DNA from: Eledone cirrhosa
Taxonomy: Eukaryota
NCBI GenBank assembly: GCA_964016885.1
Contig: OZ024743.1
Location: 64,604,001 to 64,668,000, forward strand
Direction of reading: 5' to 3'
DNA length: 64,000 bases
Part shown: piece after piece, positions 36,540 to 64,000 of the stretch
Position numbering within the stretch: the first letter of the stretch is position 1
How the letters are laid out: each line of letters opens with the position of its first letter
The notes under the pieces: generated by a model
What the model was told of the DNA's origin: nothing
The model's database searches: none
Seen by the model: the letters and a program-made list of their open reading frames with translations, nothing else
Position numbers and translations under genes: made by a program

Positions 36540-37184
36540 AACTACAAGCTAATCTATCAATGGCCTAACTGTTTCACAGATATCTGACCAGGACTGCTAC
36601 AGATACCTGGGGATAGATGAGAATATAATATTAAAGATTAGCGAAAAGGAGAATATCTATGCAGAACTAATGAGAAATCTACAGATACTCCACCCTGACT
36701 ATACCTTTAGATTTATACCTGTGATTACTGGTGGTCAGGGATATGTTAGTAACTGCGCTGGGCTTCAACCAGAAAGAGCATGGCTAGTTAGGATGTTTCA
36801 AGTACAGTCCATTAATTGGAATGTAAAACTTTTCAGAAATTCTGCTTGCAATAACAGCATATACACATTTATAGATACAGAAACATATGCACATGTACTC
36901 ATAAAACTCAAAACATACACCTCTACACATACAATAACATCCATACCTGCACACACACATACACACACAAGCGCGCGCGCATGCAGACACACTCACACAC
37001 ACATATATACACACACACGCGCGCGCATGCAGACACACTCACACACACACACACATACACACACACACACGCATACGCATGCAGACACACACACACACAC
37101 AGACATACGCATGCAGACATGTATACATATTTACCTAACCTATATCTAAATTCCAATGAGACTTGTCTCTATGTTAGAAACCGA

Positions 37185-38710: not shown

Positions 38711-41700
38711 ACGCGATCAGTCGCATATTTTGGCGTGAGAGACTATTTATTAAATTTAAGATGAATACTATCTCCGACAGTAATGCCACAACTACAGTCG
38801 GGTTGAATAACTGGTTATTCTTCTAACTATCCCTTCTGAAGACACCTTTTATTCGAATTCGTAGAGATATCCGACTAAATACATAATTCATTTTACAAGG
38901 ATTTGCTACAAACAGCATGGCTGAACACAACATCAACAAGAAAATTAAGGAAGTATCGAAGACAAATAACAAAGAAGGTAATCAAACTTTATTCAGTTGT
39001 AGCTACAGAAGAAACCGAAATTATAAATCGCATTTCTCTTGGAGTTGCGAACTTAATAATTGTTTCTACTTTAGGCACAAGGCCAGCAATTACCCAGTGC
39101 ATTACTGGTACTTCATTTTATCGACCCCGTAAGGATGAAAGGCAAAGTCAACCTCGGCGGGATTTGAACTCAGATCGTAAAGGGACGTAACTATGCTGGA
39201 AAGCATGGCGTCCGACCCTCTACCGATACTGCCAATCCAAATAATGATTTATTTAATTGTTATAAAATGGCAAAAAACAATCCCTCCATTGGCTATATGA
39301 ATATAATGAAGCTACACTGGGACGAAATGCACCCAGAGCTAAATTATTTCACAGCGAAACAATTACGCCAACAAGCGACATTTGTTGAACGTAAAAATAA
39401 GATAAATATTATTAATTGTAAGTCCCCCACAACAAACATGGAATCAACAACACGTGCTACAGATCGCCATGCTACTAGACTTCCTAGCAGCCAGGTCGAA
39501 CAGCGCCTTGAAACAACTGTGCCTGTACCATCTAAGTCTACCTCGAATGCTGGGGAAAACACTATCGATAATAATAATAATCGAAGAAATAATAATAATA
39601 ATCGAATAAATGTGACACCACGTGTACCATCCGAGTCTACCTCGACTGTTGTGGAAAATACTATCGATAATGATAATCAAAAGTATAAACAATTGAAAAT
39701 TTCCCTCAACGAAATCTTCCAGAGAGAAATTAACTCATGTATAAATATCTCTCTGGCTGAACGTGTTAAAATGACAATGGTGAATAAAAAACCAAATAAT
39801 GAAATACTACGTGTTATTGACGAAATAGGGGATGAATATTTACGACGGATAAAAACCCCAACATTTTGGCAAATCAACGCCTGTTTATATGCCTTAGCAA
39901 TGACAGTGAAGCATTATCTTGGTGATTGCAGAGATATTAACAAGAACAAAACACCACCAAACATACCATCATATATAACTAAAATAGAAAAAAAGAGTGC
40001 TGACCTACGAAAAAACATAGGTCATGTGATAATGCTCCTTACATGCAAACAAACACAAAAAAAACTCACTCCTCACCAACAAAGAGTGAAAAATAAAATA
40101 GAGACGATGTTTGGTAACAGTAGAACCAGAACTCTCCAATATAAGCTGATCACCCTCAAACAAGAATTGAGAGCTGTTAGCGAAAAACACCGATACCTGA
40201 AGAAGGTAGATGAGAGAAAAATGCTTAATAAAAGATTCAGACATCAGTCTATAGAGATATGAAGGGCAAAATAATAAGTGTCACTGAGGCCCCATCCCAG
40301 AAATGGAGAAAAATATGGGGTGAAAAGAAGAAGTTCAACCAAGATGCAGTGTGGCTAAGAGAAATTCGAAAGAACTATTGCTCCTACACTACAACAAAAA
40401 CATACGAAATAAGTGAGGGTACCCTTGAGACTGTGATAGGAAAACTCCAAGATAAGAAAACACCAGGAAGAGACATGATTGTCGGCTACTGGTACAAAAA
40501 ACTAATATTCTATCGGAGGTATCTTACTGACCTCTACCAACAAGTTCTTAAGGGAGATACACTTATACCAGAATGGTTGACATTAGCACAAACGTTACTG
40601 GTCCCCAAGAACAAAGACACCCACTTGGCAAAAGACTACCGACCCATTGCATACCAGAACCTAATGTATAAGATGTATACAGCCTGCCTCAACCTATTCC
40701 TCCAAGATCACTGTGAAAATAATAACATCATCAGAGATGAACAAGCAGCTGAAAAGAAAAGGGTTTGGGGATGTGCTGAACAACTCCTAATCAACAAAAC
40801 TGCGATGTCGGATGCGACAACTTAGGAGGAATATAACTACAGTCTGGCTGGATTACAAGAAAGGTTTCGATTCTGTTCCCCGCTCTTGAATGATAGAGGC
40901 CCTCCAACTTTCTAAAGTCCCAGACATTATTGTCAGAGCCATAGAGAGGCTGTCTTCTTCTTGGGCTACTATCCTAAGGTTAAAGACAGAGAGGGAGGAC
41001 TCTATTTTCACTGATAAAATAAAATATTGCAGGGGTATATTTCAGGGGGACAGTCTCTCTGTGATATTGTTCATCTTGTCATTAAACCCCTTGTCCTTTC
41101 TGCTCAAGAAATGTGAGGGATACATCATTGGCTCACAGGAGGACAGAAATACGAACCTAACCCATAACTTCTTTGTGGACGATCTGAAACTCTATGCCAA
41201 GAACATGGATGGGATGAAGAAAAATCTTGACCTGGTTACAACGTTCTCAAAGGATATAGGAATGGAGTTTGGCCAAGATAATTGCTCATACATGACTGTA
41301 AAGCGGGGAAAAACAACAACCCAATCTAGCAACATTGTCATCAATGGTCTAACTGTTTCACCGATATCTGATGAGGACTGCTACAGATACCTGGGGATAG
41401 ATGAGAACATATCCTATAATGGTATCTGTAATAAAGAACGCGTAACCAGGGAATACTACACCCGATTAAGAAAGATCTGGTCATCGGAACTCTCTGCACA
41501 AAACAAAACAGTGGCTCACAATGTGTTTGCTGTGCCTGTCCTAACACCAACGTTTGGAATACTCGATTGGACGAGAGACGAAATCCGAGCAGTTGATGTT
41601 GGAACTCGAAAAATACTGAACAACACCGGAAACTTCCACATCAACAGTGACATAGACCGCCTTTACTTGAAACGTAGGCAGGGAGGCAGAGGCCTAACAT

Positions 41701-42963
41701 CAGTCCAGACAACATTTGAATGTCGCATCATATCTCTCCGACAACATCTACGAACCTCGAAGCGTAGGAGCCCGCTTCTCGAGCAAGTCTATCTGCATGA
41801 AACAGATAAGATCATGAGAGTTGGGAAGGAACTCCTTGAGAGATATTCCCTGTGTGATAATCAAAAACTCACACCCAGGGATGTCGCTCAGCAGTATCGC
41901 AGTGAATCCATGGATGAAAAACTGCATGCCTATCAGCAAAAAATCATGCATGGATATGTTGCCAGGAAGCTCCAGAGTGAGAGTAATATAGATAAGGAAA
42001 GTAGTCTATCTTGGACCAACAACCGCTATATTGGCTCCCACTTTGAAGGATACGCTTTTGCAATCCAAGAACAGGAGATTAGCACGAAATACCTGATTCA
42101 CAAAAGAGATAGGGATGCAGGCAAAACACCTAGATGTGATAACAAGTGCAGACTCTGCAGAACTAACATCGAGGATATCACCCATGTCATCAGCAGCTGC
42201 CCAAAGATGTCATCGCGGTACTATCTACCTATGAGGCATGATGTAGTGGCCAAAACACTGTACAATGCAGTTCGTAAAAAAGATAGCCCCGATGATAAAC
42301 ACATTAAAAGCTACAACAATGTGGAAGACATCCATGTACACAATATGAAAGAGTACTGGTGGGATGTTCCAGTAAAGACCCCAATAAAATGCAGGCATAA
42401 CAGACCAGATATTATGATATGGGACAGGGAGAAGAAAACATGCACAGTAGTGGAAATTAGCTGCCCAGCAGATGCCAATATAATATCAAAGATTAGTGAA
42501 AAGGAGAATATTTATGCAGAACTGATGAGAAATCTGCAGATACTCCACCCTGATTACACCTTCAGATTTATGCCTGTGATTATTGGGGCACTGGGATATG
42601 TTAGTAACTGCCTCAATACAAATCTTGAGAAGCTAGGCTTCACAGGAACAGAAAGAACACAACTAGTTAGGAAATTACAAGTACAATCCATTAATGGAAC
42701 AGTAAAAATATGTAAAACATTCCAAAAATTTTGCATCTAATAACTGCATATACACATGTACAGATACAAAGCATATACACATGCACACATACAACTCAAA
42801 ACATACACATCCACACATACAATAACATCCATATCTACACATGCATGCATGCAGACATACATACATATGATGTTGTGTAAATTGTAATGAGAGAGTCTTG
42901 TGTCTATGTTAGAAACCGACTCTCTCTCTATTGGTAAAACTTTGTGAAATTATAAAACCAGAA
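38711..42963 (+). mobile_element. R4/Dong-clade non-LTR retrotransposon (RT, CCHC finger, restriction-like endonuclease), disrupted
   Basis: ORF pieces 39267-40262, 40259-40825 and 40890-42740 contain TPGRD, YRPI, GIFQGDSLS, FFVDD, CRLC..HVISSC, RHD and RPD...VVEIS. Frameshift and stops lie at ~40260-40890. A SINE is inserted at 39057-39238. The 5' boundary is approximate. Confidence 0.9.
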
Positions 42964-45199
42964 CATACATACATACATTCATACACACATATACATACAT
43001 ACATACATGGTGGCTGCCAACTCGTTTGCGAGTACGGCCACTACTTTATATCCATGTAGGAGAACCCCTACCGATGCGCTGAACGAGTGTGACTTTTTAG
43101 TCCAGCCAGCGACTTGAAAACTCTGGTACAAACACTACACTTGTGACAATCATTGACACATAGTGCTGGGCCCATGGTACCATGTGACAACAAGTGCAGA
43201 GAGATCTCCAGATACAAAGCAATGCCTGTGCCGTGAAGCTTTTATAGTGAGCAAAGGCACTGCACAAAGCCAGTCCCACTCTCTTAACCAAGATGATATT
43301 TACCAAAAAGAAGAACACGTCAACATCATTGGATACCATCAGGGTTGCAGGTGTTATATCAGAGTTTTCCTTCTCCTAGAATTCTGCCTTGACAAAGGCT
43401 AAGGGGTCATCCCTCCCGGTGATTTTGGATGGCCATTGACTCTTAAGAGCTCCTTTGCCCTTTGACAGGTTTTGTTTTTAGTCCTGCAGGATGTCCAAAG
43501 TCACCCTCCTCACCAAGAAACCTTGGTGGGGTTGCCAGTTTAGTCGCCAACGACCCGACCATGAGACAGGTTGTACTGGGATACATGTTACCAGTAGCAC
43601 CAACTGGTGACCTGACATAACATACATACATACATACATACATACATACATACATACATACATACATACATACATACATACATAGGCATTGTAAAACATT
43701 CAGACCGTTGCTCTACCGACTCTGTTAATCCACCACCCACAGTGATTGAAATATAATGCTTAATACGCCTCCTTACCATTCTCTTTCTAGTTTGTTAACA
43801 AGAGGACGTAATAGAGTTAGCTTTTGTTGTTTTGTTTTAATAAAAAAAAGAAATGCCATTCCCATCTAATTGAGCCTCGTTTTTCACAACACTTATTTCC
43901 ACTGATAAAATATCTCACGTGCAGTCAGCCAGAAATCCACATTAATCTGCTTCTAAATTCTGCTTCCTTCCTCTCTTCCTTTCTTCCTTCCTTCCCTTCC
44001 TCTCTTCTTCTCTTCCTTCTTCCCTTCCTCTTTTCCTTTCTTCCTTCCTTTCTTCCTTCCTTCCCTTCCTCTCGTCTTCCCTCCCCTCTCTCATTCCCCT
44101 TCTTTCCTTCTTCCCTTCCCTTCTTCCTTCCCTCCCTTCTTTTCTTCCTTCTTTCTTCTCTTCCTTCTCTTCCTTCCTCTCTTCTGTCCTTCCCTCTCCC
44201 TCTTTCTTTCCCTCTTCTTCCCTCTTCCCTTCTTCCCTTCTTCTCTTCCTTCATTCCATCCTTTCTTCCTTTCTCTCTTCTTTCCTTCCTCCTCCCCTCT
44301 TTCTTTCCCCCTTCCCTTCTTCCCTTCTTCCTTCCTTCCTTCCTTCCTCCCTTCTTCCCTTCTTCCTTCCTCCCTTGCTTCTCTTTTCCCCTTTCTTTCT
44401 TTCCTTCCTTTTCTTTATACTATATTTTTTATACTTATCTATTATAGTTTTTTTTCCTTTTTAGCTGGTTCTTATTTTTTCTTTTGGTTTTTGTTGTTTT
44501 TGTTTTTTGTTTTTTCCCTACCTTTTTTTTCTCCTGTTTTCTTCTGCTCATCTCCATCATCATCATCACCATCATCATCATAATCATAATCATTATCATC
44601 ACTATCATCATCACCACCACTACCACCAACACCACCACCACCACCACCGCCACCATCCCTACCACCATCACCATCACCACAACCACCATCCCCACAACCA
44701 TCATCACCACCAACACCACACCACCACTACCATCACCACCATTAACACCACCACCACCAATACCACCATCACCACCACCACCATCCCCACCACCATCATC
44801 ACCACCAACACCACACCACCACTACCACCACCACCAACACCACCATCACCACCACAACAACCACCACCACCTCCACCACCTCCACCACCTCCAACACCAC
44901 CATCACCACCACAACCACCACCACGACCACCATCACCACCAACAGGTCATTCCACTCTGTTACCCTTTCTTTCCTCATATATCTTATTTATATATTTATA
45001 TATATATTCGGGGTTTTCAGGGGTTGTCACAGGGGTCACTGCAAATAGGTGATATTTCCACAAGAATACTGGCAAGAAGGACGCAATAGTGATGAGTACT
45101 CTTGAGGTAACGGGAGCCAAAATATCCTCCATCTTTCTTTTATTTTTTTTATTTTCGTTATTGTGGTGGTTTTGTTGTTGTTGCGGTTGTTGTTGTTGC

Positions 45200-50092: not shown

Positions 50093-51175
50093 CAGGGTGT
50101 TTCAAAAAGAATGACCCAATTTTAAACAGTTATATTTATTGCAAAAAACGTTTTACAGTAATGGAACAAAGTTCAGCATGTGACACGCTGGCAAAGACAT
50201 TGATTATAACCTCAGTATAAGTTGTTGTCAGTCAGTTTTAAATTTATGTCCGCGCAACGGAAGGCGTTTTGTGTTCTGCAGTTCAGTAAGACTGAATCCG
50301 TGATCAGAGTTCAACGTAGATTTCGTCTGCGATTTGGGGTTGATCCTCCACTGTCAAAGAACATTCGACGTTGGTATCGGCAATTTGAAGAAACAGGATG
50401 CTTGTGTAAGGGGAATAGTCCAGGTCAGCCACACACGTCTGATGAAAATGTGCAAAGAATTCAAAAGGCGTTTGAACGAATCCTGCGCAAGTCTACAAGT
50501 CGTGCCAGCCTTGAACTTGCTATACCTCATACAACTGTATGGCGTATGTTAAGGCGACGTTTGAGCATGAAGCCATACCGATTACAACTTGTGAAAACTC
50601 TTCGTGTTGATGACAAAAGGAAACGTGTGGAATTCTGCAATGACCTTTTAGAGGACATGGTAGACGACAGTTTTTTGCCGAGGTTGATTTTTAGTGACGA
50701 AGCTACGTTTCATCTCAGCGGTAAAGTTAATCGTCATAACGTGCACATATGGAGACTCCAGCATCCTCATGAAACCGTCGAGCATGAACGAGATTTCCCA
50801 AACGTGAACGTTTTTTGCGCAATTTCACAAACCAAGATTTATGGCCCATTCTATTTTTAGGAAGACACAGTGACTGGACGAACCTATCTTGAAATGCTGC
50901 AGGGCTGGCTTTTTCCACAAATTCATGTAGACTCAGACAATTTCATATTCCAGCAAGACGGAACACCGTCACACTGGCACAAGGAAGTGCGGGGTTTCCT
51001 CAATGACATAATTCCACAACGCTGGAGAGGACGTGCGGGATTTCGAATCAAGGCCTTACAGTCTTGTCCTCCAAAATCTGCAGACATGACACCCTGCAAC
51101 TTCTTCTTGTGGGGATACGTTAAGGAATGTGTTTTTGTTCCACCATTAGCTAGTAACCTCGATGAGCTTAAAGGC
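50093..51175 (+). pseudogene. Tc1/mariner (rosa/DD41D-related) transposon, 3'-truncated, transposase disrupted
   Basis: TA+CAGGGTG left TIR. ATG at 50246, N-terminal HTH, FSDEATF, FQQDG and PPKSADMTPCNFFLWGYVK motifs. In-frame TAG at 50858-50860. No right TIR seen. Confidence 0.88.
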
Positions 51176-51280
51176 AGTGGAAGGAGCAAAAGGTAAACGG
51201 AAACAACAAAGCGAACAACACAATACAATGAAGAAATATATTAGTTTAATAGTTGATGTATTGATATAGTAGGAAAAGAG

Positions 51281-55151: not shown

Positions 55152-55482
55152 CTAACAGAGTGGCCCGGCGGTGCTCGGGATTTGCTCTAGGGTTCTTATA
55201 TATTCGATATATATTTATCCTTATCGAGCCTCGTGAAATAAATACGTTTGTTTATATTTTGTTATTGTGTATGCAAAAATATCTGTACACGAATATATAA
55301 TTATATATATAAATATATATAACAGTACAGAGAAGTACGTAATACCTCGGCCTCGGGATGGTGTCTACATTTTGTGATTATAAAATAAATTCGTCGTAGA
55401 TTGCCAAGGGTTTTTTCCGTGCGAAGAAAATCAATACTTTATCGCCAAATAAATACTTTTGTTTATATTTTGTTATTGTGTA

Positions 55483-55553
<71 letters not shown>

Positions 55554-55555
55554 GT

Positions 55556-55645
<90 letters not shown>

Positions 55646-55646
55646 T

Positions 55647-55735
<89 letters not shown>

Positions 55736-55737
55736 GT

Positions 55738-55838
<101 letters not shown>

Positions 55839-55859
55839 CATGTATATATATATATATAT

Positions 55860-57390
55860 ATACAATGATATTAAATAAATGGAAACTATATTTATAAAAC
55901 CATATTTATTTTATTATATATAGTTCAAGGGTACCAAGATGCATTGGTATGCTTTCCTCAGATAAAATACAAAGTTTGTTTTATAAATAGAGACATACCC
56001 ATGAAAATCATACCTTATCATTTGGATATTCACTGGATAGTGGAAATATATTAGGGATTTTTCAAACTTATGTGTGAATATGCAAAGGAATATGTAAATA
56101 ATTGAAAAACAACCGTTTATTTAAACGAGTATGGAGAGAAAGAGAAGAGATAGGAGGAGAAAGATAAAAAAAGTACGAGAGAGAGAGAAGAAAGAAACAA
56201 GAGAAGATGAATAAAAACTCATATAACGTTAATTTGAGGGAAATATATTCTAAGTATATATCTTAATAGTACGTGTATTTACGATTATTAGTTGTTTAAA
56301 ATTTGTTTATAATATAATATTTTTCTTCTGTTATAAGTAGATAAATAAATAAATAAATACATAAATAAATAAATAAATAACTAAATAAATAAATAAATAG
56401 ATGGGTATATCATGTTATAGATAATTGTTCTAATGAGTTATGAGGGATATTGGTTTTGTATTTAATGTAAATAAATATTAAGTTAAATTAAATTAAATTA
56501 AGAAGAATATTTATATTTATATGATTTAAAATGGGAAGATACGGAAAAAACTCCGGTTTAATTTATTTATTCGTTAGTGTGAGTCTATTTAGTCAAAATA
56601 AGTATAGATGTTGAAAGATACATTTAGCCGGAATCAGTTAGTGAAATAATATTGAAAATATATTGAAAAAATATTGAAAAAATATTGAAAAAATATTGAT
56701 AGAGTAATGAAAAAATATTGAAAAAGTATTGAAAAAATATTGAAAAATTTAAGAAAATTTTTTTTTAAATAATTTATAAGAGATAAGTAATTTTTAAAGA
56801 AGTAAAAATTAAAGAAATAAAAATTAAAGAAATAAAAATTATTAAAATTAAAATTTTAAAAAATTAGAATTATATACGTATATATTTTATGAAACTTTAA
56901 GAAGTCGAATTACAGCAAATGTTATAGATATTATGATTTAGAGATATGAATATATTAAAACCAAGTGGATGAGATTGTTATGGAAATAAGTAGAAATATA
57001 AGTTATATATAGTTCTGAATGCTGAATTCTGGCGATGTCTACAAGAATTAAATAAATTCGTTCTTAGATTAATAGAGTTTTTACATTTAAGTATGAAAAA
57101 AATTTCCTCAATGCACAATTTGCAGATAAAGCTGTGTTTCAGTACGCAGGTGCTTTTGAAGCTATTTCCCAAGCTAATGAATAGTCCATATTCTTGCATT
57201 TTAAGTTCCATATCAGGTTTGAAAGAGAAGTTGAAGATTTTTTATCAAATCTTCAGAAAGAATAATTGTGGTTATTCCAGCGACTTTTAAATTCTGTAGA
57301 AGTTGAACCGACATAGTTAAATATATTATCACTAGTTTTAACTGTGCATTTATAGACTTCCAACAAATTAAATAACCTTTCTACTTATAT
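55860..57390 (-). mobile_element. Truncated Penelope-like element: GIY-YIG remnant, AT-rich UTR and hammerhead, inserted in (TA)n
   Basis: Manual minus-strand translation of ~57362-57010 gives EVYKCTVKTSDNIFNYVGSTSTEFKSRWNNHNYSF*RFDKKSSTSLSNLIWNLKCKNMDYSLAWEIASKAPAY*, then a frameshift to CKLCIEEIFFILK...INLRTNLFNSCRHRQN. A same-strand hammerhead lies at 55907-55969. Confidence 0.82.
55907..55969 (-). ncRNA. Hammerhead family A1, degenerate (GAAA>GAAC)
   Basis: Reverse complement reads tattttat-CTGAGGA-aagc atacca...tggtac cctt-GAAC-tatata-TA|ataaaata. Confidence 0.7.
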
Positions 57391-58607
57391 ATATATATTA
57401 AAATAACAGATTAAAGTTTAAGCAAAGAATTGCTGTTTTCACCCTTAACGGGATCTTCTGAAACTAAAAACATCAATCTGTGAAGGCAGAAGTAAATATT
57501 TCGAAAAACGTTACACACTATATATATATACACACACTATATATACGTATACATACACACATATAGCGTCATAATGTCGTAATGCAGACAGCCAGACATA
57601 CAGACAGATATTATAAGGGCGCAACGTTATATCTATGTATCTATCTAAAAAGAGAAAGACTAACAATTATAGAGAGAGATCGCTAAATCGCCTAATGCGG
57701 CTCCTAGGGCATTGAAAATTTGAAATATTTTTTTTCTCAAAACACTCACAGGACCATAAGTATTACATGTGTAAAGTTTGAAAACAATCGGTTGGGTGGT
57801 TCTCGAGTTTTAGTGAGCTGACAGACAGACAGACAGACATACAGACAGACAGACATTCTCTGTTGTAGATATATAGATTAGGTGCGGTGGGTTGGCAGTA
57901 TCGGTAGAGGGTTGGACGCCATGCATTCTAGCATAGTTACGTCCCTTTACGGTCTGAGTTCAAATCCCGTCAAGGTTAACTTTGCCTTTCATCCTTACGG
58001 GGTCGATAAAATAAAGTACCAGTAATGCACTGGGATAATTGCCGGCCTTGTGCCAAAAGTAAAAATAATTATTGTTATTAAGGGCGATGTATTGGCAGGT
58101 CGATAAAATAAAGTACCAGTCATGCACTGGGGTCGATTTAAACGACTTTCTCCTCCAAAAAATTTGCGTCGAGTGAAATGCTTTGAGGCATTTAGTTACG
58201 GCCCTTTGCCTTTTATCCTTACGGCGTCGATAAAATGAAGCACCAGTAATGCACTGGATCAATTTAATCGATTTTCCCTCCCTTACCTGGAAATTGTTGG
58301 CCCTGTACCAAATGTAGAAATAATTATTATTAATGCGGTTGATATATTAAAGTACCAGTTAAATAATGGGGTTGAGAAAATAAAGTGCCAGTCATGTACT
58401 GGGGTCGATATGATCATCTATTCCCTCTGGCCCCCAAAATTACTGGACCTGTCCCTAAAGTAGAAATTATTATTTTCATCAAGAATGAGTTATCAAAACC
58501 CAAAAGGGATTTCCGTTTCTAGATAATTATCTTCATAACAAATTCATTGATTGGTGTGATGGTGTGTTGGTGGAGACGAAGTCCATAAATTTAGTATGAT
58601 GATGATA

Positions 58608-58751: not shown

Positions 58752-59435
58752 AGTGATGATGGTGATGATGCTGTTGTTGTTACCAATAAACCATTCTATG
58801 ATTGGTATTCTGTTGTTTACAACTGAGAAAAATAAAACATTTTATGTTTTAATTCTAGGCAAAAAAAAAACCAGCCGGCAGGAGATCCAGGAGTAGACTC
58901 CGAGGAAGATGGTTGGATAACATCCATGAGCTTGGCTGGTCTCGCTTGGGGATCCAGTCCAATCAGTTGGAAACGGTTGCTTTTGGAACCCGCTGGAAGG
59001 AGTGTTTGAGGACAAAGTTGACCTCGGCGGGATTTGAACTCAGATAGAAAAGAATCGAAAGGAATACTGCAAAGTATTCTGTACAACATTCTAACAACTC
59101 TGTCAATTCGCCGCCTTAATGGCAAACCAATACTGGATTCCTAAAATTAAATATGTTCTACACTATTGCCAAAAATAATTGATTTCTAACGAGGGCAAAA
59201 GGGCATCAAATTTTATGAAGAAAAAAATTGATTACATCAACCCCCAGTACTTGACTGGTACTTTGTTTTATCGACCCCGGAAGGATGAAAGCCAAAGTTG
59301 ATTAAATCAACCACAGTACTTGATTGGTACTTTATTTTGATGGCCTCGGCAAGATTAGAATTCAGAATGTAAAGGTGTGTAACTAAACACTGCAAATCCA
59401 CTGCGCTTCATTGTTGCTAAAATTATTAAAATAAA

Positions 59436-62400
59436 ATTGTAGGGTTGTGGATTGGCAGAATTGGTGGTAGTATTGTAGGTTGTGGATTGGCAGAATTGGT
59501 GGTAGTATTATGGGTTGTGGGTTGGCAGAATTGGTGGTAGTATTGTGGGTTGTGGATTGGCAGAATTGGTGGTAGTATTGTAGGTTGTGGATTGGCAGAA
59601 TTGGTGGTAGTATTGTCGGTTGTGGATTGGCAGAATTGGTGGTAGTATTATGGGTTGTGGATTGGCAGATTTGGTGGTAGTATTGTGGGTTGTGGATTGG
59701 CAGAATTGGTGCTAGTATTATGGGTTGTGGATTGGCAGATTTGGTGGTAGTATTGTGGGTTGTGGATTGGCAGAATTGGTGCTAGTATTATGGGTTGTGG
59801 ATTGGCAGATTTGGTGGTAGTATTGTGGATTGTGGATTGGCAGAATTGGTGGTAGTATTATGGGTTGTGGATTGGCAGAATTGGTGGTAGTATTGTAGGG
59901 TTGTGGATTGGCAGAATTGGTGGTAGTATTATGGGTTGTGGATTGGCAGATTTGGTGGTAGTATTGTGGGTTGTGGATTGGCAGAATTGGTGGTAGTATT
60001 GTAGGGTTGTGGATTGGCAGAATTGGTGCTAGTATTATGGGTTGTGGATTGGCAGATTTGGTGGTAGTATTGTGGGTTGTGGATTGGCAGAATTGGTGGT
60101 AGTATTATGGGTTGTGGATTGGCAGAATTGGTGGTAGTATTGTAGGGTTGTGGATTGGCAGAATTGGTGCTAGTATTATGGGTTGTGGATTGGCAGATTT
60201 GGTGGTAGTATTGTGGGTTGTGGATTGGCAGAATTGGTGGTAGTATTGTAGGGTTGTGGATTGGCAGAATTGGTGGTAGTATTGTAGGTTGTGGATTGGC
60301 AGAATTGGTGGTAGTATTGTAGGTTGTGGATTGGCAGAATTGGTGGTAGTATTGTCGGTTGTGGATTGGCAGAATTGGTGGTAGTATTATGGGTTGTGGA
60401 TTGGCAGAATTGGTGCTAGCATTATGGGTTGTGGATTGGCAGATTTGGTGGTAGTATTGTGGGTTGTGGATTGGCAGAATTGGTGGTAGTATTGTAGGGT
60501 TGTGGATTGGCAGAATTGGTGGTAGTATTGTCGGTTGTGGATTGGCAGAATTGGTGGTAGTATTGTAGGGTTGTGGATTGGCAGAATTGGTGGTAGTATT
60601 GTCGGTTGTGGATTGGCAGAATTGGTGGTAGTATTGTCGGTTGTGGATTGGCAGAATTGGTGGTAGTATTGTGGGTTGTGGGTTGGCAGAATTGGTGGTA
60701 GTTTTGTGGGTTGTGGGTTGGCAGAATTGGTGGTATTATTGTAGGTTGTGGATTGGCAGAATTGGTGGTAGTATTGTGGGTTGTGGATTGGCAGAGTGGG
60801 TGGTAGTATTATGGGTTGTGGATTGGCAGATTTGGTGGTAGTATTGTGGGTTGGCAGAATTGGTGGTAGTATTGTGGGTTGTGGGTTGGTAGAATTGGTG
60901 GTAGTATTGTGGGTTGTGGATTGGCAAAATTGGTAGTAGTATTATGGGTTGTGGATTGGCAGAATTGGTGGTAGTATTGTGGGTTGTGGGTTGTCAGAAT
61001 TAGTGGTAGTATTGTGGGTTGTGGATTGGCAGAATTGGTGGTGGTATTATGGGTTGTGGATTGGCAGAATTGGTGGTAGTATTGAGGGTTGTGGATTGGC
61101 AGAATTGGTGGTAGTATTGAGGGTTGTGGATTGGTAGAATTGGTGGTAGCATTGAGGGTGGCAGATTGGCAGAATTGGTGGTAGTATTGTGGGTTGTGGG
61201 TTGGCAGATTTGGTGGTAGTATTATGGGTTGTGGATTGGCAGAATTGGTGGTAGTATTGTGGGTTGTGCTTTTGACAGAATTGGTGGTAGTATTATGGGT
61301 TTTGGGTTGGCAGAATTGATGGTAGTATTGCGGGTTGTGGATTGGTAGAATTGGGGGTAGTATTGAGGGTGTGGGTTGGTAGAATTGGTGGTAGTCTTGT
61401 GGGTTGTGGATTAGCAGAATTGGTGGTAGTATTATGGGTTGTGGGTTGGCAGAATTGGTGGTAGTATTGTGGGTTGTGTGTTGGCAGAATTGGTGGTAGT
61501 ATTGTGGGTTGTGGATTGGCAGAATTGGTGGTTGTATTGTGGGTTGTGGATTGGCAGAATTGGTGGTAGTATTATGGGTTGTGGGTTGGCAGAATTTTAT
61601 GGTAGTATTATGGGTTGTGGGTTGGCAGAATTGGTAGTAGTATTATGTGTTGTGGGTTGGCAGAATTGGTAGTAGTATAATGGGTTGTGGATTGGCAGAT
61701 TTGGTAGTAGTATTATGGGTTTTGAGTTGCCAGAAATGGTGATAGTATTATGGGTTGTGGGTTGGCAGAATTGGTGGTAGTATTGTGGGTTGTGGATTGG
61801 CAGAATTAGTGGTAGTATTAAGGGTTGTGGGTTGGCAAAATTGGTGGTAGTATTATGGGCTGTGAGTTGGAAGAATTGGTGGTAGTATTATGGGTTGTGG
61901 GTTGGCAGAATTGGTGGTAGTATTGTGGGTTGTGGATTGGCAGAATTTGCGGTAGTATTGTGGGTTGTGGATTGGCAGAATTGGTAGTAGTATTGTGGGT
62001 TGTGAATTGGCAGAATTGGTGGTAGTATTATAGGTTGTGGGTTGGCAGAATTGGTAGTAGTATAATGGGTTGTGGATTGGCAGAATTGGTGGTAGTATTA
62101 TGGGTTTTGGGTTGGCAGAATTGGTGGTAGTATTGTGGGTTGTGGATTGGCAGAACTGGTGGTAGTATTATGGGTTGTGGGTTGGCAGAATTGGTGGTAG
62201 TATTATGGGTTGTGGATTGGCAGAATTGGTGGTAGTATTATGGGTTGTGGGTTGGCAGAATTGGTGTTAGTATTATGGGTTGTGGGTTGGCAGAATTGAT
62301 AGTAGTATTATGGGTTGTGGATTGGCAGAATTGGTGGTAGTATTATTGGTTGTGGGTTGTCACAATTGGTGGTAGTATTATGGGTTGTGGGTTGGCAGAA

Positions 62401-63733
62401 TTGGTGTTAGTATTATGGGTTGTGGGTTGGCAGAATTGGTGTTAGTATTATGGGTTGTGGGTTGGCAGAATTGGTGTTAGTATTATGGGTTGTTGATTGG
62501 CAGAATTGGTGGTAGTATTGTGGGTTGGCAGAATTGGTGGTAGTATTGTGCGTTGTGGATTGGCAGAATTGGTGGTAGTATTATGGGTTGTGGGTTGGCA
62601 GAATTGGTGGTAGTATTGTGGGTTGTGTGTTGGCAGAATTGGTGGTAGTATTGTGGGTTGTGGATTGGCAGAATTGGTGGTTGTATTGTGGGTTGTGGAT
62701 TGGCAGAATTGGTGGTAGTATTATGGGTTGTGGGTTGGCAGAATTTTATGGTAGTATTATGGGTTGTGGGTTGGCAGAATTGGTAGTAGTATTATGTGTT
62801 GTGGGTTGGCAGAATTGGTAGTAGTATAATGGGTTGTGGATTGGCAGATTTGGTAGTAGTATTATGGGTTTTGAGTTGCCAGAAATGGTGATAGTATTAT
62901 GGGTTGTGGGTTGGCAGAATTGGTGGTAGTATTGTGGGTTGTGGATTGGCAGAATTAGTGGTAGTATTAAGGGTTGTGGGTTGGCAAAATTGGTGGTAGT
63001 ATTATGGGCTGTGAGTTGGAAGAATTGGTGGTAGTATTATGGGTTGTGGGTTGGCAGAATTGGTGGTAGTATTGTGGGTTGTGGATTGGCAGAATTTGCG
63101 GTAGTATTGTGGGTTGTGGATTGGCAGAATTGGTAGTAGTATTGTGGGTTGTGAATTGGCAGAATTGGTGGTAGTATTATAGGTTGTGGGTTGGCAGAAT
63201 TGGTAGTAGTATAATGGGTTGTGGATTGGCAGAATTGGTGGTAGTATTATGGGTTTTGGGTTGGCAGAATTGGTGGTAGTATTGTGGGTTGTGGATTGGC
63301 AGAACTGGTGTTAGTATTATGGGTTGTGGGTTGGCAGAATTGGTGGTAGTATTATGGGTTGTGGATTGGCAGAATTGGTGGTAGTATTATGGGTTGTGGG
63401 TTGGCAGAATTGGTGTTAGTATTATGGGTTGTGGGTTGGCAGAATTGATAGTAGTATTATGGGTTGTGGATTGGCAGAATTGGTGGTAGTATTATTGGTT
63501 GTGGGTTGTCACAATTGGTGGTAGTATTATGGGTTGTGGGTTGGCAGAATTGGTGTTAGTATTATGGGTTGTGGGTTGGCAGAATTGGTGTTAGTATTAT
63601 GGGTTGTGGGTTGGCAGAATTGGTGTTAGTATTATGGGTTGTTGATTGGCAGAATTGGTGGTAGTATTGTGGGTTGGCAGAATTGGTGGTAGTATTGTGC
63701 GTTGTGGATTGGCAGAATTGGTGGTAGTATTTG
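59436..63733. repeat. 35-bp minisatellite, ~120 units, with a 1149-bp higher-order duplication
   Basis: Unit gtggattggcagaattggtggtagtatt(g/a)tgggtt. Identical ORF-track peptides at 61439 and 62588 give the 1149-bp period. Confidence 0.95.
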
Positions 63734-63826
63734 CTTTACATAAATTTGATATCGATAAACAAGCACCAGTCTAGTATTGGGATTAATTCTTCCTCTATAT
63801 CTCTTTCTCATTTGAACACACTCTCT

Positions 63827-63889
<63 letters not shown>

Positions 63890-64000
63890 TAACAGATTAA
63901 AGTTTAAGCAAAGAATGGCTGCTTTCACCCTTAACGGGATCCTTAACAGCGATTCTTTGCTTAAACTTTAATCTGTTATTTCAATAAATACTTGCTCTAC

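Follow-up and report, generated by a model that had tools for sequence, protein, structure and literature searches.

A probable Hydra-clade Penelope-like insertion in the octopus Eledone cirrhosa and a candidate paired hairpin signal in related elements

The window analysed here is a whole stretch of 64,000 nucleotides of Eledone cirrhosa DNA (GCA_964016885.1, contig OZ024743.1, positions 64,604,001 to 64,668,000 of the forward strand). At 55863-57385 it holds a compact block, the parts of which are listed in Table 1 together with the other copies of A1, a small hammerhead repeat found at both ends of the block. Read on the minus strand, the block passes from a decayed GIY-YIG endonuclease through a long spacer to a type I hammerhead, and its opposite end is capped by an inverted piece of A1 tail. 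TA tracts abut both ends, which indicates insertion into (TA)n.

Table 1. Features of the block at 55863-57385 and copies of A1 elsewhere in the window.
Feature	Positions	Strand	Evidence
Left (TA)n tract, long, target	55486-55862		sequence reading
A1-type pLTR, sense arm, ending at site 1 (55863)	55863-56020	-	identity to A1 segments
Type I hammerhead	55907-55969	-	motif scan
Non-coding AT-rich spacer, family membership putative	56021-56977	-	composition, motif scan
Decayed C-terminal GIY-YIG endonuclease, Hydra type (CxxC..E..N..CxH)	56978-57360	-	motifs, Pfam, phmmer, profile alignment
Inverted final 26 nt of A1 tail, ending at site 2	57360-57385	+	match to A1 tails
Right (TA)6 tract	57386-57398		sequence reading
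A1 reference copy with hammerhead, site 1, h1 hairpin (24719-24742) and the complete tail up to site 2	24580-24805	+	alignment, covariance model E 2.9e-4
A1 compound copy, block-like layout: inverted tailed arm and sense arm ending at site 1	5365-5652		alignment, covariance model
A1 compound copy: inverted arm stops at site 1, tailed sense arm has a partial hairpin deletion	25303-25735		alignment
A1 tail-only stub and inverted tailed arm, TA tract between	19985-20301		alignment, covariance model
Chimera: tailed A1 sense arm joined by a fold-back palindrome to the inverted tail of a second family	9527-9885		sequence comparison

The endonuclease peptide extends on the minus strand from 57360 to about 57014 and requires two reading frames. 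A premature in-frame TGA lies at 57253-57255, a frameshift falls within 57125-57141 (a 17-nt gap separating the Tyr that ends at 57142 from the Cys at 57124), and the remnant closes with a stop at about 56978. The domain is 5'-truncated at its first motif, and the reverse transcriptase (RT) and linker are missing from the block. Its motifs read CKLC..E..N..CRH, and CCHH is absent, as judged by eye from the alignment. The Pfam GIY-YIG model matches with an E-value of 4.5e-4, slightly short of the gathering score. Among 1.84 billion representatives, phmmer retrieved 1526 relatives at E<=1e-3 (top E 1.2e-12); identity ranges from 35 to 51% among the 150 matches listed, none of which is closer. 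Alignment to a profile of 19 long Hydra-type proteins with hhalign gave probabilities of 99.0% and 91.8% for the two frames. The domain occupies columns 592-704 of a 717-column profile of RT-bearing proteins, which places it at the C-terminal end, and it is directly followed by a stop and non-coding DNA. A word-based protein search with the first frame, which is weak evidence, found no longer or near-length relative. The motifs, Pfam match, phmmer relatives and profile alignment bear out the original prediction of a decayed minus-strand GIY-YIG domain.

The block hammerhead consists of an 8-bp stem I, the core CUGAGGA, stem II and a minimal palindromic stem III, and its A1 segment is 88-92% identical to five other A1 segments in the window. 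The GAAA of the hammerhead core is invariant. The core is intact in the five other A1 copies; in the block GAAC replaces GAAA through a change at 55923, which the first description of the locus had not recorded. Because this alters an otherwise invariant core, the block hammerhead is probably inactive. It folds no better than shuffled sequence (z -0.27), and an Rfam search at the gathering cut-off gave no match anywhere in the 64-kb window. From the end of the domain to the hammerhead, the spacer measures about 1050 nt, with about 20% GC, an excess of T over A on the sense strand and short simple repeats. It has no other match in the rest of the 64-kb window and includes no second hammerhead, even when two core mismatches are allowed. 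The predicted succession of roughly 1 kb of AT-rich DNA, A1 hammerhead and (TA)n is thus as described. The spacer is twice the length of the longest non-coding spacer among 61 relatives (59-524 nt). A 2.1-kb ORF with a spacer of this length would exceed 3 kb, and Hydra elements are generally short (<3 kb), but the spacer is perhaps not part of the family consensus.

Alignment of the A1 copies defines two 3' ends. Site 1 lies about 45 nt past the hammerhead, and site 2 about 95 nt beyond site 1. The sense arm of the block ends at the same site as the A1 copies at 5652 and 25303. The inverted tail is joined straight to the first endonuclease codon at 57360 with no TA run between them, and none separates the spacer from the hammerhead. 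When the block tail was used as a query, the six best-scoring places in the window were the six A1 tails (42, 29, 27, 27, 27 and 26); the best matches of 30 shuffled tails scored 22-28, such that only two A1 tails on their own beat every shuffle. An A1 tail in inverted orientation had been predicted here, and 57360-57385 does match in the opposite orientation; the closest copy, at 5365, was missing from the copies listed for comparison. Both ends of the block are most similar to the same two A1 copies (5365-5652 and 24600).

The block, 5365-5652 and 25303-25735 are all built of head-to-head arms, one ending at each site. Inversion of a 5'-truncated arm and a tail at one side are published features of Penelope-like elements (PLEs; PMC3846280), and the block has this insertion structure of endonuclease-bearing (EN+) PLEs, with its inverted 5'-truncated arm and a tail at a single end. 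The chimera at 9527-9885 begins with an inverted tail from the family at 18248/21670, broken within its own hairpin, and a 19-bp fold-back connects this tail to the A1 arm with no TA between them. The chimera shows that ends joined in one insertion need not come from one family. The A1 copies are dispersed, truncated or head-to-head, not tandem. They are best read as truncated 3' stubs of a Hydra-type element and not as a family in its own right that had a "parent". The original prediction of an "autonomous parent of A1" is supported as to a Penelope-like origin and was overstated in its wording, as the A1 copies look like the element's own truncated 3' ends.

The Hydra clade of PLEs is defined by a C-terminal endonuclease with CxxC and CxH motifs and no CCHH, a hammerhead, and (TA)n targets, and is further marked by a CxCx5C linker and RWK and DKT motifs, according to PMC8557442. 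The block has the endonuclease motifs, a type I hammerhead near its 3' end (with an altered core) and the (TA)n target. With the clade as described in that source it shares the CxxC/CxH endonuclease around conserved E and N, the hammerhead position and the target; it differs in the missing RT and linker and in a spacer of about 1 kb. The block is a family member of this already described clade, in an already published layout. Long relatives conform to the same pattern. In the 45 stored proteins of at least 620 aa, which include four near-copies of P0073, YRDD is present in 45/45, DKT/S in 44/45, RW[KR] in 37/45, the CxC linker in 44/45 and N..E..CxH in 44/45. At the level of motifs, these proteins match the Hydra definition of Craig 2021. 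The "RT" label of the relatives rests on the motifs in PMC8557442, because the long relatives scanned gave no Pfam RT match, apart from precomputed PF26215/PF28514 labels, and a search of PDB sequences gave no match.

For comparison at the DNA level, 93 foreign Hydra-type loci were collected by profile search; the set comprises the best 77 from metagenomes and 16 from genome bins and includes several copies of one repeat in some families. With P0073 as the sole query, the locus search gave no match. A hammerhead lies downstream in 62 of the 88 loci that have an endonuclease end; the other 26 lack one under the strict scan, and 6 of the 88 had less than 150 nt downstream. The distance from endonuclease to hammerhead is 59-524 nt in 61 loci and 1104 nt in L041. 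The extension in L041 is coding, and this locus was rejected as a precedent for a 1.1-kb spacer. An excess of T over A on the sense strand, as in the block, characterizes 42/57 of the relatives' spacers, and the spacers of L037 (467 nt) and L050 (524 nt) are AT-rich. One insertion in L085 has the layout of the block (an inverted tailed arm and a sense arm ending at the upstream site); the main insertion there has site 1 at both ends, and one end per site is accordingly not a rule.

Some of these loci are of interest in their own right. The Hydra-type ORF of L041 carries, at 3145-4147, a 330-aa C-terminal extension past the endonuclease; a Ulp1-like cysteine protease motif stands at the end of this extension (Pfam Peptidase_C48 E 0.034, below the cut-off). 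L078-L093 are Hydra-type animal retroelements within contigs of bacterial genome bins and symbiont assemblies, and are probably host (animal) contamination. In L012, L030, L041, L059 and L079, TA tracts lie immediately 5' of hairpin 1 or 2 (described below), ahead of complete ORFs; both sites of the element might also serve as 5' junctions or targets.

The foreign loci share a short hairpin. The pattern GCTC-N-GAGC(A/G)CT follows the hammerhead in 34 of the 40 loci with enough sequence. It can also be written GCTC...YY-GAGC-ACT, with a closing stem GCTC/GAGC, a 2-nt 3' bulge and ACT after it. Upstream of ORF starts, at least one hairpin is found in 50/60 loci and two in 35/60, against a background of 1 in 88,369 coding bases. 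The spacing between hairpin 1 (h1) and hairpin 2 (h2) is 53-83 nt, which matches the tail spacing. As a sequence pattern, Hydra-type RNAs have the hairpin in duplicate between the hammerhead and the start codon. Its first inner pair, which the pattern did not demand, is C-G in 64 and T-A in 28 of 95 distinct hairpins when the fixed 2-nt bulge is assumed, and almost never pairs when other bulge sizes are assumed. The loop varies in length, the 3' bulge is fixed and the inner pairs covary. In 15 gapless 24-nt hairpins, 97% of cells are paired, exceeding all 500 shuffles and all slid controls; the control is lenient, as the structure was derived from the same 15 sequences. At three inner positions, G-U pairs are slightly commoner than A-C (12 vs 5). 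The 14 nt preceding the hairpins are strongly AT-rich.

Copy ends lie close to these hairpins, on their upstream side. Ends were mapped against full 5' regions of the same family (26 of 41 references, at least 93% identity over at least 35 nt), and 11 of the 13 mappable 3' ends fall at most 14 nt upstream of h1 or h2, compared with about 12.5% expected by chance. Five lie before h1, six before h2 and two elsewhere; the 13 are few and not all independent, with the identical L022 and L023 both among the six h2 ends. The hairpin can be seen by eye in the published consensus sequences Hydra-2_Amil, Hydra-1_Ajap and Hydra-2_Ajap (PMC8557442). The words "hairpin", "stem-loop" and "palindrom" are absent from the main text of that paper. 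A literature search, judged by titles and the beginnings of abstracts, brought up no description of the paired hairpin.

A1 carries the same hairpin. A covariance model was built from foreign loci only, using 15 of the 95 hairpins; the 24-nt class was picked since the A1 hairpin is 24 nt long. In the window it gave 15 matches at E<=1, of which 12 were below 0.03. It finds five of the six A1 tails, with approximate E-values of 2.9e-4 to 0.015; the one it misses carries a deletion there. Because a foreign-only model recognises its tails, A1 is, judging from this independent evidence, Hydra-derived, which supports the Penelope-like origin that had been proposed. A1 DNA itself has no significant likeness to the 93 foreign loci (best E 0.20). 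In 11 of the window matches the closing pair is A-U instead of G-C, a compensatory change that the A1 tails share. After the weakest match (54974) was dropped, 14/14 retained matches are followed by a TA or CA run 50-91 nt later. As in the foreign relatives, A1 has its site 1 a short way ahead of the hairpin, at a distance of about 7-8 nt. The block itself has no hairpin, as its tail piece is too short to include one. A generalised hairpin scan gave 13 window matches against a mean of 0.2 in 20 shuffles; it was designed after the A1 version had been seen, recovers 47/95 foreign hairpins and is not an independent test.

The window also holds stubs of other families. Tails of other Hydra-type families were recorded at 5694, 8340, 11479, 15398, 18018, 18293, 21714, 21870 and 22515, each consisting of a hairpin and, 50-77 nt later, a TA or CA run; at 15398 and 18018 the tail is all that is present, as a stub between TA tracts. 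Another family has the hammerhead-like core CAGAAGA in every copy keeping the core, inverted arms and a long-loop hairpin in its tail. Its copies are at 57401-57512, 33446, 10432, 6931-7103, 13077-13213 and 63884-63990; a stub of this family sits right beside the block, and 55180-55232 holds a related tail. A separate type I hammerhead family is represented at 10840-11006, 14574 and 17415, with its core intact at 10908, between TA tracts.

Much of this picture has precedent: the element type, the clade, its presence in octopus and the pLTR origin of hammerhead repeats are already in print (PMC4209133 and PMC3846280 among the sources). The clade is known from cephalopods through Hydra-1_Obim of Octopus bimaculoides (PMC8557442), which resembles the block in clade, target and octopus host. 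Identity with Hydra-1_Obim was rejected; by-eye comparison with the supplements of PMC8557442 shows an unlike hammerhead, short 3' region and endonuclease DNA, and sets the block and A1 apart as a different family. The non-LTR retrozymes described in bioRxiv 10.64898/2026.07.22.740005 are, like A1, small hammerhead repeats traced to PLE pLTRs. They are defined there by tandem type I hammerhead units, whereas A1 copies are dispersed or head-to-head, and this assignment was rejected. A Naiad PLE, with an N-terminal endonuclease, CCHH and no canonical hammerhead, was also rejected: the block endonuclease is terminal and a hammerhead follows it. The Adineta elements Pen1 and Pen2a (PMC3846280) share with the block an inverted 5'-truncated pLTR, a one-sided tail and a long spacer before the 3' pLTR; they belong to another clade and make target-site duplications in unique DNA, whereas the block lies in (TA)n.

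A biochemical parallel comes from Poseidon PAc of Anolis. As reported in PMC11167929, both target strands are cut and extended, and there are two internal reverse-transcription starts, the tail being the stretch between them. PAc shares with A1 two copy ends, an optional tail, an AT-rich target and an upstream hammerhead. It belongs to a different clade, its starts lie 111-118 nt within the ORF, inside an AC-rich stem-loop, and its tail measures 30-40 nt (PMC11167929). In contrast, Hydra-type loci have their ends 5' of the ATG, 53-83 nt apart, with a hairpin following each. The A1 tail, at about 95 nt, falls outside the 30-40 nt range, which weakens the likeness to Penelope/Poseidon tails and not PLE membership.

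These observations make it quite probable that 55863-57385 is one dead, 5'-truncated Hydra-clade Penelope-like insertion with A1 as its 3' end, and that the remaining A1 copies belong to the same family group as shorter stubs; the family link of the block endonuclease to A1, taken by itself, is likely. Following the analogy with the other clade, an RT-endonuclease protein would cut both strands of AT-rich DNA, and reverse transcription would start at two internal RNA sites, the stretch between them becoming the tail (PMC11167929). In the sequence pattern of Hydra-clade RNAs, site 1 closely precedes hairpin 1 and site 2 closely precedes hairpin 2, copy ends falling at one or the other, and each hairpin may be a protein-binding mark that sets a start site. 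One cut strand would then have primed at site 1, with copying reaching the start of the endonuclease domain after about 1.5 kb, and the other at site 2, with copying over 26 nt; the two cDNAs would have been joined head to head. The copy has since decayed, as its stop, frameshift and hammerhead core change show. That the whole block is one integration event, as originally proposed, gains support from the fusion of tail and endonuclease without a TA run, the shared site 1 end and the layout, which recurs at 5365-5652 and in the foreign locus L085. Against the one-family reading, no full-length copy of the family was seen in the 64-kb window.

A single event could also have involved two families, in which case reverse transcription began on A1 RNA and then switched to, or captured in trans, the RNA of another Hydra family, with endonuclease and spacer as cargo. 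Such an event would resemble the cross-family chimera at 9527-9885, which has no TA between its parts, and would fit the several Hydra-type families within the window, the unusually long spacer and the published capture of unrelated DNA between the pLTRs of rotifer PLEs, where captured spacers measure 0.9-1.5 kb (PMC3846280). It is nevertheless unlikely, since the endonuclease, spacer and hammerhead are collinear in the expected order, the spacer holds no remnant of another hammerhead with two core mismatches allowed, and both ends are A1 and closest to 5365-5652 and 24600. Somewhat less doubtful is that the endonuclease and the A1 end belong together and most of the spacer is later or captured, as host flank or expanded simple repeats. 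The T>A sense skew also found in 42/57 relatives' spacers and the AT-rich spacers of L037 and L050 speak for an original spacer, whereas its want of any other window match, its simple repeats, its length outside the relatives' range and the Pen1_Av precedent (PMC3846280) favour capture. This reading agrees with the one-insertion explanation on family identity.

Chance nesting, whereby A1 stubs and an endonuclease fragment arrived independently in one TA-rich zone, is very improbable. TA tracts account for 8.8% of the window, many stubs have gathered in them, and another family adjoins the block. However, no TA run lies at the tail/endonuclease or spacer/hammerhead joins, the endonuclease would have no 3' end belonging to it, and 5365-5652 and L085 show the same layout.

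As candidate signals, the hairpins may mark the two reverse-transcription starts from which the tail results. That the duplicated, covarying Hydra-clade hairpin binds the RT-endonuclease and fixes both start sites is about an even call. The variable loop, fixed 3' bulge and covarying inner pairs fit a single-stranded fold, the motif is duplicated at the tail spacing (53-83 nt), and in the anole element the protein requires a region located 3' of the starts (PMC11167929). These points count against the somewhat less favoured reading that the hairpin is real and has another role (a signal to the endonuclease at the DNA or cDNA level, a pause site, or an element of promoter or translation), with ends falling nearby only through the preceding AT-rich sequence. 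The strongly AT-rich 14 nt upstream of the hairpins could anneal to a TA target once it is cut, G-U pairs barely outnumber A-C (12 vs 5 at three inner positions), and in D. virilis, according to PMC11167929, the endonuclease depended on the tail to recognise DNA, all of which suit this other role.

The block is ordinary retroelement debris of a described clade, and its value is that it ties many small hammerhead stubs to a protein-coding element. The hairpin is weightier: it bears on how PLEs choose two internal starts and give inverted, one-side-tailed insertions, a question studied in vitro for one element only (PMC11167929). If the start-site role is true, the hairpin would be the first sequence-level rule for the PLE tail and would mark Hydra-derived stubs like A1 even without coding sequence. 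A short duplicated, covarying motif behind each end offers exact targets for mutation, and intact 700-aa proteins with flanks are available in L001-L093.

The remainder of the window holds several unrelated features. An exon at 1746-2405 (minus strand) encodes a bHLH domain, which we take to be Hand-like from its motif. At 39168-42740 (plus strand) lies a retrotransposon remnant, presumably of the non-LTR class, with an RT and a C-terminal CCHC/restriction-like region in three frames; a piece of it recurs near 36553. A transposase remnant at 50210-51196 (plus strand) is presumably of Tc1/mariner type. A 545-nt inverted repeat pair at 30467-31011 and 43011-43555 is 97% complementary across 12 kb, and 59290-64000 is occupied by a long 35-bp minisatellite array with strong GC skew.
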